IMG/VR virus record: IMGVR_UViG_3300035182_002389
Coordinates: 32,001 to 96,000 of that record
Length of the DNA stretch: 64,000 nt
DNA from: a virus
Lineage: Duplodnaviria > Caudoviricetes
Reading direction: 5' to 3' (one strand)
Shown here piece by piece: positions 19,397-35,460 of this stretch (its first letter is position 1; each line of letters begins with the position of its first letter). Both the position numbers and the translations under genes were made by a program. The notes under the pieces were generated by a model. It had not been told where the DNA came from. It saw only the letters and a program-made list of their open reading frames with translations, and did not search any database.

Positions 19397-19425
19397 TTGA
19401 CAACTCATGTACGTTGTGCGATCCT
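19397..19425 (+). promoter_or_regulatory. Promoter P1
   Basis: TTGACA-N17-GATCCT; spacer ends in TACGTTGTGC. Confidence 0.7.
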
Positions 19426-19438
19426 CACGTCTGACTCC

Positions 19439-21148
19439 ATGAAGAAACCGAACGCGGGAAGCGAAAAGAACGCGCCGTTGGCGCGAGCACGCGCTTCGCG
19501 CGAGGACGCTCCTGCGGAGCGAGGACGCTCCTTTGGAGCGAGCGGCGAGAAGCAAAAGTACGTCGCGGGGCGCCCCGTGCGGGTCGGCGACAGGTTCGGC
19601 GAGCTGACCGTCACCGAGCAGATCGAAGCGCCCGACCACAAGACCTACCAAGGTCGGCACTGGCTCTGCACGTGCGACTGCGGCAACCCTGCGATTCGCA
19701 CGACCACGACGCTTCAGCAAGCGCTCGCAAAAGGGCACGTCTCTTCCTGCCGAGAGTGCTGGCTGGAGCTGCTCCGATCGCGCACGGCGGAGACGTTCGA
19801 CCAGGAACGAACCAAGACGCGCACCGCGCTCGCATCGCTGTGGGCGCAGCATCGAACGCTCTACAGCGTCGCCTACGACGCGCGCGAAGAAGAACGGATT
19901 CGAGACGCCATCGAAGAGGACGGGATCCCGATCCGGTCGGAGGAGTCGCTCTCCGAGCAGTACGCCGTCGAGCCCTCACTGCTGAACGTCGACGCTCCCT
20001 CGTCGGCGGAGACGACCACGGCCCCGGTGCAGCGCGCCGCGTACCTCTATCCCGTCGGAGGCGGCGAGCTTTGCTGGGCGTGCATCACGTGTGGCGAGAC
20101 CTTTTCGCGAGGGTTCGGGTGCACGCTCTGCATCGAGCCCGTCTGCATGGACTGCGTGAGGAGCGAGGCGCACGTCCACACCGAAGACGAAGACGGCCTG
20201 ATGCTGCATCAGATTGCGGCGGAGTTCGATCGGAGCCGCGAGCGCGTCCGGCAGATGGAGACGCAGGGTCTCACCAAGCTGCGTCACCTCCACATGGCTT
20301 CACTCGTCAGGACCCTCGGGGCGGACTACGTGAGCGTGCACGCGTTTCTTCGCGCCTTGCACCCCGAGCTTCTCGACGTCGGCGAGATGCTTGCTGTGCT
20401 CGACTGGCGCGAGCGCATGGCGCGCGAAGCGAAGGTCGCCGCGTACAGGGCCGCAGAGGAGGCGGCCGAGAGGGCCGCAGAAACGCGGAGGATCATCGAA
20501 GAGCGTCGCCAGGCCAAGCGTGAAGAAGAACAGCGTCGCCGGGCCGAGCTTGCTGCCCAACCCGAGGAAGTGAGGGCGCTTCGTATTCAGCGCAACCTCG
20601 CGCGTCGTGAGACGGAGACGACGCGGCTGGCGAACGATCTCGCAGCCTGGCACGCGAACCTCGAAGCGTTGCGTGCGAGCGAGCCCGAACGAGATCGGCG
20701 CGCGGCCGAGGCGAAGAGCGCGCTCGAACTCGAACGCATCGAGAACGAGAAGAGGCGCAGCGCCGAGGTGATGGAAGAGGCCCGTAAGACCCTCGCCACG
20801 ACCTCCGCCGTCTTCGTCCCGAGCAAGCTCAGGGTCGCCGCGCGCAAGCAAGACCTCCTCGCGATCCTCATGCTCCCCGTCGGCGAGTTCGATTTCAGCG
20901 AGGAGGTGCGAGGCGCACTCGTCGAGGCCGGCGCCGAGTACATCGGCGATCTTCTCTGCGAGCTGTCGTGCCCGCCTTCGCGATGGGTCGGACCTCTGCT
21001 CGGCGCGGAGGTGCTGTTCGCGTTGCGAGAGGTCGGCCTCAACTTCGGCGTCAACATCTACGCGCTCACGGGCAGGAAAGGCTCGGAGCTGCCGTTCGCG
21101 ACCCCGTTCGTCAAGCGGATGGGGAAGGTTTCAACCAAAAAACATTGA
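19439..21148 (+). CDS. Multidomain protein: CDCG zinc domain, sigma70 region-4 HTH, coiled coil, RNA polymerase alpha-CTD-like domain
   Basis: WLCTCDCG; LHQIAAEFDRSRERVRQMETQGLTKLR; LPVGEFDFSEEVRGALVEAGAEYIGDLL. Confidence 0.7.
   Translation: MKKPNAGSEKNAPLARARASREDAPAERGRSFGASGEKQKYVAGRPVRVGDRFGELTVTEQIEAPDHKTYQGRHWLCTCDCGNPAIRTTTTLQQALAKGHVSSCRECWLELLRSRTAETFDQERTKTRTALASLWAQHRTLYSVAYDAREEERIRDAIEEDGIPIRSEESLSEQYAVEPSLLNVDAPSSAETTTAPVQRAAYLYPVGGGELCWACITCGETFSRGFGCTLCIEPVCMDCVRSEAHVHTEDEDGLMLHQIAAEFDRSRERVRQMETQGLTKLRHLHMASLVRTLGADYVSVHAFLRALHPELLDVGEMLAVLDWRERMAREAKVAAYRAAEEAAERAAETRRIIEERRQAKREEEQRRRAELAAQPEEVRALRIQRNLARRETETTRLANDLAAWHANLEALRASEPERDRRAAEAKSALELERIENEKRRSAEVMEEARKTLATTSAVFVPSKLRVAARKQDLLAILMLPVGEFDFSEEVRGALVEAGAEYIGDLLCELSCPPSRWVGPLLGAEVLFALREVGLNFGVNIYALTGRKGSELPFATPFVKRMGKVSTKKH
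19471..19540. repeat. Four-hairpin triloop array, copy 3
   Basis: CGCGCC-GTT-GGCGCG AGCA CGCGC-TTC-GCGCG AGGA CGCTCC-TGC-GGAGCG AGGA CGCTCC-TTT-GGAGCG. Confidence 0.9.
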
Positions 21149-21173
21149 CATGTTTATGTAGTTGATCCAAACT
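21145..21173 (+). promoter_or_regulatory. Promoter P2
   Basis: TTGACA-N17-CAAACT. Confidence 0.6.
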
Positions 21174-21207: not shown

Positions 21208-21441
21208 ATGGGCGAGACGTGCAAGCTGAGGGCGTGGGGGTCGGGCGACAAGGAAGACTGCGGCTCGCCGGCGGGCTCGCACGGCTACTGCCAGAAGTGC
21301 TACCCGCTCGTGCGAGGTGGCATCCTCGCGCGCATTCGAGAGGCCGAGCGCGACCTCGAATCCGACAGGTTGGAGCTGCGCCAGCTCGAAGCGGCAGAGG
21401 CTCGCGACATCGCCAAGCGCTGCTTCGGCGGAGACATCTGA
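21208..21441 (+). CDS. Small Cys-containing hypothetical protein
   Basis: AAGGAG RBS. Confidence 0.6.
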   Translation: MGETCKLRAWGSGDKEDCGSPAGSHGYCQKCYPLVRGGILARIREAERDLESDRLELRQLEAAEARDIAKRCFGGDI

Positions 21442-21449
21442 GGCAAGGC

Positions 21450-21525
21450 GAGACGAGATGGGGAACGGGAACGCTCGCTTCGCGAGCTGGCAACGGGAAC
21501 GGGAACGCTCGCTTCGCGAGCTGTG
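21450..21525. repeat. (GGGAAC)n / GCTCGC-TTC-GCGAGC element
   Basis: Two tandem GGGAACGGGAACGCTCGCTTCGCGAGCTG units. Confidence 0.85.
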
Positions 21526-21537
21526 GAGAAGGCCATC

Positions 21538-21927
21538 GTGGCGAGCAACCCCCGCAAATCGCAACACCTCTGCGTCCACAACCTGTGCAAGAACCTTCGC
21601 GAGCCCGGCAAGGCTCGCTGCTGGGTGCACCTCGGTTGGGCTGCGCGCCATTCTGCGACCTACCGGCAGCGGCGCGAGAGCCAGGGGCTCTGTCACCACT
21701 CGGCGTGCAAGAAGCGCCCGGTGAAAGACCGCCGCTTCTGCAAGCCCCACCTCAAGCTCCACGCCGAGAAGACCAACGAGTACCTGAAGCGCAAAGCGAA
21801 GGAGCGCGAGCGTCTGAACGCCGACATCTCGCGCGCGATGGCGCAGTCGAGCATCGCGCAAACGAAGGCGGCCAAGCCCGCGAAGAAGACCGTGAAGAAG
21901 ACCGCGAAGAAGAGGGCAAGCCGATGA
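21538..21927 (+). CDS. Protein with duplicated Cys/His zinc knuckles and a Lys/Ala tail
   Basis: C-x4-C...C-xx-H twice. Confidence 0.55.
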   Translation: MASNPRKSQHLCVHNLCKNLREPGKARCWVHLGWAARHSATYRQRRESQGLCHHSACKKRPVKDRRFCKPHLKLHAEKTNEYLKRKAKERERLNADISRAMAQSSIAQTKAAKPAKKTVKKTAKKRASR

Positions 21928-22172: not shown

Positions 22173-23180
22173 ATGCGCCTTGGATGGATCACCGACCCCC
22201 ACATGAACTTCGTGAGCACGCTCGACTGGTGGCGCGAGCTGCTCAAAGAGGGCGACGACGCCTACCTCATCACGGGCGACATCGCGGAGGCCTCGTCCAT
22301 CATCCCGTCGCTCCAGGCGCTCGCGGCGGAACTGCCCGCCGGCAAGGTCATCTACTTCGTGCTCGGCAACCACGATTTTTACGGCTCCTCGATGCCGGGC
22401 CGTCCGAGGGCGACCATCGCGGACACGCGCGCGAGGGTCGCACACTTCGCGAAGTACGAGCCGAAGCTCGTCTACCTGCACGACCTCGATCCCTTTGCCA
22501 GCGCGCCGAAGGCGCGCGTTCCCGTTCCCGTTCCCGAATCCCGCGCCGAAGGCGCGTCTCGTCTCCCTGCGCTGGGACGAGACGAAATCGGGAAGGGGGA
22601 ACGCTCGCTGCGCGAGCTGGAAACGGGAACGGGAACGGGAAACGGGTACGTCGAGATCGCTCCGAACACCGCGCTGGTCGGCGTCGACGGCTGGTACGAC
22701 ACGCTCAACGGCGACGTGAAGAGGAGTCGCTGCGGACTCGCGGACTTCCACCTCATCCCGGACATGAACTGCCCGGCGAAGGAGAGGAACGCCCTCTGCC
22801 AGACCCTCACGATGATGGACGCCGTGCGGCTCCAGAAGATGATCGAGAACGCGCTCGGCGACAAGCGCGTCGTCGAGCTGGTCGTCGCGACGCACGTGCC
22901 GCCGTTTTCGGGCGCGGCGTGGCATCTCGGCGAAGTGAGCGACTCCGAGCACCTGCCCTACTTCTCGAACCGCCTCGTCGGCAAAGCCATCGTCGAGTCG
23001 ACCGAAGACTTTCGACAAGCCGGCGGCAAGGTGACGGTGCTGTGCGGCCACTCGCACTCGGAGGGGAAAATCTATCCCCACCACAACCTCAAGGTGCTCA
23101 CCGGCGCGGCCGAATACTACGCGCCGAAGAAGCACATGACGCTCGCGCTCGGCGAGCTTGTCCGTTCGGAGAACTGGTGA
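22173..23180 (+). CDS. Calcineurin-like metallophosphoesterase with an in-frame repeat insertion
   Basis: ITDPH, ITGDI, LGNHDFY, THVPP, CGHSH; preceded by (GAGGAA)4. Confidence 0.85.
   Translation: MRLGWITDPHMNFVSTLDWWRELLKEGDDAYLITGDIAEASSIIPSLQALAAELPAGKVIYFVLGNHDFYGSSMPGRPRATIADTRARVAHFAKYEPKLVYLHDLDPFASAPKARVPVPVPESRAEGASRLPALGRDEIGKGERSLRELETGTGTGNGYVEIAPNTALVGVDGWYDTLNGDVKRSRCGLADFHLIPDMNCPAKERNALCQTLTMMDAVRLQKMIENALGDKRVVELVVATHVPPFSGAAWHLGEVSDSEHLPYFSNRLVGKAIVESTEDFRQAGGKVTVLCGHSHSEGKIYPHHNLKVLTGAAEYYAPKKHMTLALGELVRSENW
22497..22648. repeat. Composite palindromic (GTTCCC)n...(GGGAAC)n element
   Basis: Left arm: GAA-loop hairpins in GTTCCC repeats; right arm: TGC-loop hairpin in GGGAAC repeats. 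Confidence 0.85.
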
Positions 23181-23409: not shown

Positions 23410-23748
23410 ATGCGCTTCAACAACGGTCTGATGGGCGACAAAGCCCCTTGCGACGACTGCAAGCGCCCGCGCAGTGAGCACGAGTGGCGATGTCGAAAGT
23501 GCGGGGCGCTCTCGGTCGAGAAGCATCCGTGCAACTGCGGCGCGCACTCGTTCCCGACGCCCGCGTGCGGGTGCAAGATCGGCAGCTCCCTCTACTGCGC
23601 GACTTCGGTGCGAAGGTTCACCGAGCACGACCGCCTCGAATGCGCGATGTACGACACGGTCGCGGTCAGTGCCGCGCTCGCGAAGCGGTGGCGCGACGAC
23701 ATGAAGTGGGAGCTGGACGAAGCCGCACGACTCAAGGATCTGCCATGA
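23410..23748 (+). CDS. Cys-rich hypothetical protein
   Basis: Multiple CxxC. Confidence 0.55.
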   Translation: MRFNNGLMGDKAPCDDCKRPRSEHEWRCRKCGALSVEKHPCNCGAHSFPTPACGCKIGSSLYCATSVRRFTEHDRLECAMYDTVAVSAALAKRWRDDMKWELDEAARLKDLP

Positions 23749-34992: not shown

Positions 34993-35021
34993 TTGACAGA
35001 TGATGTACGTTGTGAGAGTCT
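34993..35021 (+). promoter_or_regulatory. Promoter P4
   Basis: TTGACA-N17-GAGTCT; spacer ends in TACGTTGTGA. Confidence 0.7.
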
Positions 35022-35431: not shown

Positions 35432-35460
35432 TGGACAGGTTATGTACTTTGTGTGAAGCT
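35432..35460 (+). promoter_or_regulatory. Promoter P5
   Basis: TGGACA-N17-GAAGCT; spacer ends in TACTTTGTGT. Confidence 0.6.

Follow-up and report, generated by a model that had tools for sequence, protein, structure and literature searches.

What could a large virus do with a protein assembled from relatives of the two modules that read the upstream part of a promoter for RNA polymerase (RNAP)? The question is raised by a gene at positions 19439-21148 of a 64-kb stretch of a Caudoviricetes genome, namely bases 32001-96000 of the 202,518-bp IMG/VR virus record IMGVR_UViG_3300035182_002389 (CheckV completeness 94%). We will refer to this stretch as the window, and to the complete virus record as G000 where its own coordinates are needed. 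The gene encodes a 569-amino-acid (aa) chimeric protein, P0001, which carries a helix-turn-helix (HTH) of the sigma70 region 4.2 type and, towards its C-terminus, an acidic domain that is very probably a remote homologue of the C-terminal domain of the RNAP alpha subunit (alpha-CTD). P0001 lacks sigma regions 2, 3 and 4.1; judged from its sequence, it carries an HTH of sigma origin but is no sigma factor itself. Our tentative answer, to which we give slightly less than an even chance, is that it acts as an early promoter-bound regulator of a virus depending on the host RNAP, and that it would be unable to nucleate transcription itself. The features on which this answer depends are the following:

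19439-21148, plus strand: gene for the 569-aa chimeric protein P0001, a stop-free open reading frame (ORF) with a G+C fraction at third codon positions (GC3) of 0.80

20192-20314, plus strand: sigma70 region 4.2 HTH, residues 252-292 (Pfam Sigma70_r4; phmmer against PDB)

20834-21058, plus strand: alpha-CTD-like double helix-hairpin-helix domain, (HhH)2, residues 466-540, acidic and with the DNA-contact positions substituted

A preliminary description of the locus, made from the sequence alone, had proposed a resemblance to sigma70 region 4.2, and this was borne out for the HTH half of the region. Pfam PF04545 (Sigma70_r4) matches residues 252-283 with an E-value of 1.1e-7 and 31.7 bits against a cut-off of 24.1, covering profile positions 19-50 of 50; the score is 33.9 bits for the isolated segment and 34.8 bits in the genome scan. 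A phmmer search of PDB retrieved E. coli sigma70 region 4 (E 0.002), residues 255-292 corresponding to sigma70 572-609, and the top-ranked NCBIfam models for the HTH are of the RpoH and RpoD types, not of the extracytoplasmic function (ECF) type. In sigma70, R584, E585, R586, R588 and Q589 read the -35 hexamer, and in the phmmer alignment all five are identical in P0001 (R267, E268, R269, R271 and Q272). SRERVRQ in the recognition helix is the counterpart of sigma70 T583-Q589, and KLRH that of K597-H600, so that the motif SRERVRQ..E...L.KLRH is near-identical to residues 583-600 of primary (group 1) sigma70 factors (PF04545; PDB 2p7v, 1tlh, 3t72, 4jk1), with all the -35 contacts kept. The differences from those factors are equally clear: P0001 has no sigma regions 1-3, the equivalents of R603, K593 and R596 are M, Q and T, and profile positions 1-18 find no match, region 4.1 and the first helix of region 4.2 being absent. 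A Cys/His cluster (residues 206-250) precedes the HTH instead and stands where the first helix of region 4.2 would be. Furthermore, Sigma70_r2, the domain for core binding and -10 recognition, is absent from P0001, its sole match in the genome being G000:150581-150778(-). A weak match of the HTH to MzaA, a sigma-like protein of the MZA defence system, lies far below the cut-off (E 2e-4) and concerns the generic HTH alone.

The relationship of the C-terminal domain to the alpha-CTD is more distant. When 1.84 billion representatives were searched exhaustively with HMMER, one informative relative emerged, P0003 (E 6.7e-4, in five stretches), a protein in which Sigma70_r4 is followed by five Pfam-grade RNA_pol_A_CTD domains (2.6e-60), and P0001 aligns to every one of these repeats across the whole domain. 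The other match of the P0001 searches, P0002, was discarded as a spurious repeat protein. Hidden Markov models (HMMs) were built here from alpha-CTDs gathered around P0003, with the best of 2000 shuffles as the null: P0001 scores 25.4 bits with the HMM from sigma-linked alpha-CTDs (best shuffle, 10.9) and 14.9 bits with that from all alpha-CTDs minus the P0003 group (best shuffle, 7.3). Comparison of the single sequence with rpoA and tetratricopeptide repeat (TPR)-linked alpha-CTDs by hhalign gave a 79% probability (E 1.6e-5, 63 columns), and five of the six nearly invariant columns of a 49-sequence alignment are kept (S487, G503, G518, E524 and L529). The AlphaFold2 model made with the 49-sequence alignment has a predicted local distance difference test score (pLDDT) of 69.6, rising to 84-89 in the core. 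Its best Foldseek matches are alpha-CTDs (target template-modelling score, TM, 0.62-0.74; root-mean-square deviation, rmsd, 2.4-3.1 A; probability 0.93-0.99), but at E-values of 0.1-1, and with VIA the top six matches are all alpha-CTDs (Z 8.1-8.3, rmsd 2.1-4.2 A, 64-94 residues).

Against these results it must be set that neither Pfam RNA_pol_A_CTD (PF03118) nor NCBIfam gave anything at E<=10 with the whole protein, with the isolated domain or in a six-frame scan of the genome, and that phmmer with the C-terminal domain found no match in PDB. The HMM built from rpoA alone gave P0001 6.7 bits, which is not significant beside a best shuffle of 7.8, and single-sequence AlphaFold2 of residues 455-569 produced an unusable model (pLDDT 40.6). 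The structural support for the fold is partly circular, since the guided model drew on an alignment of alpha-CTDs and modelling from the single sequence was unsuccessful. The profile searches therefore divide the two assignments of the preliminary description, Pfam backing Sigma70_r4 and not RNA_pol_A_CTD; its alpha-CTD resemblance survives as the remote homology seen in the P0003 match, in our own HMMs and in hhalign, and not as a Pfam or NCBIfam family assignment.

What the domain has kept and lost bears directly on its possible function. Residue equivalences, which agree in the MAFFT and hhalign registers, are given here in E. coli alpha-CTD numbering. The UP-element contacts are replaced at five positions (R265 by E489, N268 by G492, C269 by A493, K298 by L520 and S299 by L521), G296 (G518) being the sole contact position kept, and the segment equivalent to alpha 285-289 is shortened. 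The domain has an isoelectric point (pI) of 4.05 and a net charge of -7, as against pI values of 5.0-6.4 in rpoA examples and 9-10 in the P0003 repeats. On the other hand, acidic equivalents of alpha D259 and E261 are retained (E483 and D485). Compared with the alpha-CTD of RNAP, the domain is collinear over its whole length and its alignment-guided model superposes, but it fails the Pfam profile, has lost the contacts and has no alpha N-terminal domain joined to it. It is probably no DNA reader and more likely serves in protein contact. The proposal that P0001 mimics both DNA-reading modules of the upstream promoter consequently needs to be narrowed: the protein is built from relatives of both, but DNA reading can be argued for the HTH only, as the copy of the alpha-CTD has its UP-element contacts replaced and a charge of -7. 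The opposite divergence of the two modules, one keeping its DNA-reading residues and the other losing them, points to a DNA anchor in the first case and to a protein contact in the second.

A variant strain from another sediment metagenome, about 96% identical, keeps the P0001 frame without insertions or deletions. In the variant contig L092, residues 407-569 show seven amino-acid changes; five of these are crowded into residues 491-496 (window 20909-20926), where RGALVE becomes QDGLIK, and the other 157 aligned residues hold two. Residues 491-496 lie on the helix-1 face, the working surface of the alpha-CTD, and the cluster reflects either a contested interface, that is, a selection hotspot, or a single patch-conversion event. 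None of the listed strain differences falls in the HTH recognition helix.

Proteins that join sigma region 4 and alpha-CTDs are not restricted to this virus, and P0001 appears from its sequence to be an atypical form of a sigma-4 plus alpha-CTD design that is recurrent yet undescribed. In P0003 and P0004 (L005 2626-4524), four or five alpha-CTDs come after sigma-4, and the N-terminus is a hydrophobic, signal-like segment; P0007 has three alpha-CTDs and then sigma-4; P0008 has two alpha-CTDs and a Pfam Sigma70_r4, and P0009 shows the same layout by eye, its precomputed Pfam list holding the alpha-CTD only. Such fusions of uncultured bacteria and phages (P0003-P0009) share with P0001 the presence of both modules in one polypeptide; the P0001 domain scores best against their alpha-CTDs, and the helix before the domain also aligns. 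They differ in that their alpha-CTDs are Pfam-grade, often in 2-5 copies and mostly basic, and their region 4 is complete, whereas P0001 has one degenerate acidic copy, a truncated region 4, two zinc modules and a spacer of about 165 residues. Outside the domains, whole-protein and N-terminal-half searches found no sequence shared between P0001 and the fusions. As to their source, P0003, P0004 and P0007-P0009 are metagenomic cellular proteins, in which sigma region 4 and 2-5 tandem alpha-CTDs are arranged in three ways, and P0008 and P0009 add a C-terminal domain of about 400 residues of unknown family.

Within viruses, the IMG/VR loci L010-L089 comprise 69 distinct small ORFs (78-277 aa) with a Pfam-grade alpha-CTD, and the alpha N-terminal domain occurs in one of them only. 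Their partner domains include Sigma70_r4 (in only two), FitA/Arc ribbon-helix-helix, Mor, HTH_3, Xre-type HTH, HTH_23, Aca2 and Crp-type HTH. They resemble P0001 in presenting, in a virus, a free alpha-CTD on a sequence-specific DNA-binding module, but differ from it in their small size, in clearing the PF03118 threshold and in having partners that are mostly not Sigma70_r4. These small ORFs look like an apparently unstudied protein class, and no paper on alpha-CTD fusions was found in the literature that could be searched; sigma-4-only proteins are described as the most frequent sigma-like type in phages (bioRxiv 10.64898/2026.10.08.757525). A pattern scan of viral contigs with the sigma-4/alpha-CTD piece of P0007 gave nothing, and the matches of the same piece in a tblastn search of GenBank phages were set aside as mostly bacterial rpoA/rpoD contamination (L009, when checked, was an ordinary rpoA). 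A further architecture of about 430 aa joins TPR repeats to two alpha-CTDs (P0010-P0012, P0019, P0020, P0022-P0025, P0028 and P0029), and some of these proteins are labelled "DNA-directed RNA polymerase subunit alpha" at source, yet have no alpha N-terminal domain.

The promoter in front of the gene gives the HTH a plausible target. Two sites are involved at this locus:

19397-19425, plus strand: promoter P1, with TTGACA as -35 element, a 17-nt spacer containing ATGTACGTTGTG and a weak -10 element, GATCCT

21145-21173, plus strand: further TTGACA promoter-like site, overlapping the P0001 stop codon and preceding a 77-aa ORF at 21208

That P1 lies directly before the gene had been claimed before, and its elements could be placed precisely: TTGACA begins at 19397, the 3' TG of ATGTACGTTGTG and the following c form an extended -10 (TGn), and the ATG is 13 nt past GATCCT. 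A simple sigma70 consensus scan did not list P1, its -10 being too weak. The same layout recurs in the window at 34993, with an identical 12-mer, and more loosely at 35432, 25446 and 44095, the family consensus being TTGACA-N4-ATGTAC(G/T)TTGTG-n-(nAnnCT), on the plus strand and about 9-13 nt before an ATG. Such a distance from the -10 to the ATG would imply very short leaders. On the two strands of the 64-kb window together, TTGACA itself is found only 4 times, where shuffles give 13.0 +/- 3.5, and 4/4 occurrences are on the plus strand, directly ahead of genes. Because the layout recurs and TTGACA is confined to these pre-gene, plus-strand sites, P1 is, on sequence grounds, a credible sigma70-type early promoter, one of a family of five or six. 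Beyond the window, sites of the family were noted at G000 8774 and 16621, and the conserved ATGTAC box of the spacer could be a regulator site.

The transcriptional setting of the virus is that of a genome without a detectable polymerase. Multisubunit RNAP genes were not detected in the 94%-complete virus record, the same search being positive in 14/14 control genomes; a T7-type RNAP was not found in the record either, an absence that is weakly supported, as that search was positive in no control genome. One complete ECF-type sigma factor is encoded (G000:150323-150778(-), a 195-aa open frame; Sigma70_r2 41.5 bits, Sigma70_r4 30.7 bits), and it probably serves a later gene class. Viruses without an RNAP of their own must re-programme the host enzyme, which they are known to do by binding sigma region 4 or the alpha-CTD or by modifying these chemically. 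Staphylococcus phage G1 gp67 is among the phage factors that re-programme host RNAP via one or other of these surfaces. Jumbo phages lacking RNAP are described as dependent upon sigma factors, minimal sigmas, gp33, AsiA and enzymes that modify alpha (PMC7824862). P0001 is comparable with T4 AsiA/MotA, T4 gp33, T4 Alt/ModA and phiKMV Rac (PMC2988021, PMC7824862) in its likely target surface and early timing, but has no sequence or fold relation to them; they act on host sigma-4 or alpha-CTD by binding or modification, whereas P0001 consists of copies of those modules. In this sense, P0001 and the wider phage set suggest another strategy, in which parts of the promoter-recognition apparatus are used either to compete with it or to plug into it.

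As a promoter-bound regulator, P0001 would bind TTGACA-type -35 elements through its sigma-derived HTH, possibly aided by an N-terminal zinc ribbon. Its targets would be the virus's own early promoters (P1, 25446, 34993, 35432 and 44095) and host sigmaA promoters. Without sigma region 2, region 4.1 and the first helix of region 4.2, it would be unable to nucleate open-complex formation. The alpha-CTD-like domain, because its UP-element contacts are lost and it is strongly acidic, would be a protein-contact head on a long arm and not a DNA reader, with sigmaA region 4, or the usual contact factors of the alpha-CTD, as candidate partners. The net effect would most likely be the occupation and shut-off, or the re-tuning, of sigmaA-type promoters, the sign of regulation being the least secure step, and P0001 might autoregulate at P1 while the virus passes transcription to its own ECF-type sigma. 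Several observations speak against this reading. The depletion of TTGACA is what host sigmaA alone would predict; the HTH is preceded by no recognisable sigma helix, and its folding may depend on the upstream zinc finger; the listed strain differences, from low-depth contigs, amount to 13 synonymous and 13 non-synonymous codons and so indicate moderate constraint only; and whole-protein and N-terminal-half searches of P0001 retrieve the protein itself only, which leaves an orphan for which an argument from conservation is impossible.

Among the other explanations, that of a protein riding the polymerase is unlikely. The sigma-4-like module would dock on the beta-flap of the host core enzyme or holoenzyme in the manner of a minimal sigma or T4 gp33, and the head would replace or block the host alpha-CTD, so that P0001 would shift promoter preference from RNAP rather than sit on DNA alone. 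Jumbo phages without their own RNAP do encode minimal single-HTH sigma-like proteins, gp33 and AsiA (PMC7824862), and the prevalence of sigma-4-only proteins among phage sigma-like proteins (bioRxiv 10.64898/2026.10.08.757525) points the same way, as does the failure to detect an RNAP gene in the virus record. L281 and V290, the counterparts of sigma70 L598 and L607, are hydrophobic. Against docking, the match is confined to profile positions 19-50, and P0001 lacks both region 4.1 and the first helix of region 4.2, which form much of the flap-tip pocket; furthermore, the conservation of all the -35-reading residues argues for retained DNA reading. Anchoring near the -35 element is kept in another, improbable alternative, in which the head would be offered to region 4 of RNAP-bound sigmaA and, serving as an additional alpha-CTD, would stimulate viral promoters lacking UP elements. 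The native alpha-CTD contacts sigma region 4 through D259 and E261, and the P0001 equivalents are acidic (E483, D485) in a domain whose DNA contacts are lost; the long helical arm could span promoter distances, ORFs that combine a DNA-binding domain with an alpha-CTD are frequent in phages, and PDB 3n97 has an alpha-CTD beside sigma-4 on UP/-35 DNA. With its own HTH on the -35 hexamer, however, such an activator would compete with the very sigma-4 meant as its partner, and the retention of D259 and E261, which are conserved family-wide, may be structural only. A more specific version of the idea sees P0001 as a third alpha-CTD on a stalk, anchored by the HTH at TTGACA promoters, with the acidic head engaging sigmaA region 4 or another alpha-CTD client; we regard it as doubtful to the same degree. 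If true, it would be a new form of polymerase capture, in which an inter-subunit contact of RNAP itself is reused for activation or blocking, and the strain-variable helix-1 patch would set the partner specificity of the stalked head.

Two further explanations are very unlikely. P0001 might be a decoy, its free modules titrating host or defence proteins that dock on the alpha-CTD or on sigma region 4 (activators, anti-sigma-like factors or sigma-containing defence systems). The acidic domain, non-DNA-binding in character, would suit such a role, and a hotspot of amino-acid changes on helix 1 between strains is what a contested interface would show, but the changes may stem from one patch-conversion event; the weak MzaA match can be cited as well, but it is confined to the generic HTH and lies far below cut-off. 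A decoy would also leave the zinc ribbon and the intact -35-reading residues without obvious purpose. The other possibility is that P0001 is a DNA-binding protein domesticated from a homing endonuclease and without a part in transcription, acting for example in genome organisation or replication, with its HTH and HhH modules as generic binders of DNA or protein. Elsewhere the zinc ribbon is N-terminal in homing endonucleases of the HNH and GIY-YIG kinds, and homing endonucleases carry modular HTH DNA-binding domains. The HTH of P0001, however, scores above the Sigma70_r4 cut-off, has the recognition helix of a primary sigma and was assigned to no reported NUMOD-type family, its HhH domain is closest to sigma-4-fused alpha-CTDs, and a nuclease domain is lacking. 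The promoter-bound regulator is the reading that we favour. The virus offers a defined set of sigma70-type early promoters on which P0001 can be tested; its function, like its uncultured host, is inferred.

The gene itself is real and no assembly artefact. Gene callers predicted the identical protein on three other contigs from different samples, the variant strain has the frame intact, and the GC3 of the gene is typical of the surrounding genes. P0001 opens a long plus-strand gene block, the genes upstream lie on the minus strand, and the 121-bp gap between them makes this a divergent junction. Two other start codons were considered and rejected: a TTG at 19397, which sits within the -35 hexamer, and a GTG at 19577, as the other family promoters place the ATG about 9-13 nt past the -10 and every gene caller picked 19439. 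A start at GTG 19577 would drop a leader encoded by hairpins and would resemble the start of a homologue of the ribbon on viral contig L001. By the searches made, P0001 appears to be an orphan with neither orthologue nor paralogue. Scans of viral and metagenome sequences returned only the same virus and matches to the zinc ribbon, which is also the sole matching part in tblastn against GenBank phages; searches inside the virus with the zinc ribbon, with the zinc-finger/HTH part and with the C-terminal domain found P0001 only; and an ESM Atlas feature search with residues 40-300 gave no usable match, the structural neighbours being N-termini of the homing-endonuclease type (TM <0.4 by query).

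The remaining parts of the gene, which frame the two promoter-related modules, are the following:

about 19453-19547, plus strand: GC-rich nested hairpin array in codons 5-37, translated as a basic low-complexity leader

19577-19783, plus strand: zinc ribbon (C..C.C.CG ... C..C), residues 47-115, related to phrog_374 and to homing-endonuclease N-termini

19784-20053, plus strand: acidic linker, residues 116-205, pI 4.5, with no recognisable family

20054-20188, plus strand: second Cys/His cluster, residues 206-250, with 7 Cys and then H-x-H

20324-20824, plus strand: helical E/R/A-rich spacer, residues 296-462, described by heptad and ion-pair counts

21059-21148, plus strand: basic tail, residues 541-569, and stop codon, pI 10.7

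Two of these features, a CDCG zinc domain of the HNH-endonuclease type and a hairpin array within the gene, had been recognised in the preliminary description and were found as described. The ribbon matches phrog_374, annotated "HNH endonuclease", with an E-value of 1e-7 at profile positions 198-276 of 617 (the ribbon part alone). Its identity is 43% with the N-terminal part of a GIY-YIG endonuclease ORF on viral contig L001 (1206-2165) and 38% with the HNH endonuclease of phage phiG17. The likeness to phage HNH and GIY-YIG homing endonucleases comprises the motif G.(K/R)FG.LT ... W.C.C.CG ... SC..C, at 38-43% identity over about 50-60 residues; these enzymes have a catalytic domain after the ribbon, whereas P0001 has none, and Pfam gave no match to an HNH or GIY-YIG nuclease domain in it. 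The second Cys/His cluster shows hints of RING, ZZ or B-box in Pfam and PDB, all sub-threshold, and is possibly a cross-brace two-zinc finger of a RING/ZZ/B-box-like kind.

The spacer had been called a long coiled coil, and this may hold for one part of it: about residues 381-415 look heptad-like, with a hydrophobic occupancy of a/d positions of 0.62-0.75, and the remainder appears to be mostly a helix of high charge that lacks such a seam. In residues 325-375 and 409-450, charged side chains make up 46-61% and i/i+4 ion pairs are numerous, in the manner of a single alpha-helix, and the a/d occupancy is 0.12-0.38; both measures are heuristic counts and not the output of a trained predictor.

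The nested GC-rich hairpins occupy codons 5-37, and their fold z-score is only -1.96 (19453-19547). The short ends of other contigs match 19462-19528 alone, which indicates that the hairpin element is repeated elsewhere, and the conserved protein of P0001 begins at residue 47, past the hairpin-encoded leader. Further hairpins follow downstream: 34-nt GC-rich tandem units with GGGAACGGGAAC loops lie between genes at window 21448-21520, and units with GGGAACGGGAAC loops also occur in frame within a metallophosphoesterase gene (ORF 22173-23180), where they are read as Gly-Asn/Gly-Thr repeats. Metallophosphoesterase is the sole informative Pfam family among the genes neighbouring P0001. The same early block also holds, downstream, small Cys/His-rich ORFs that matched no Pfam family and are partly very basic (21208-21441, 21523-21927 and 23410-23748), which may encode further zinc-binding regulators.

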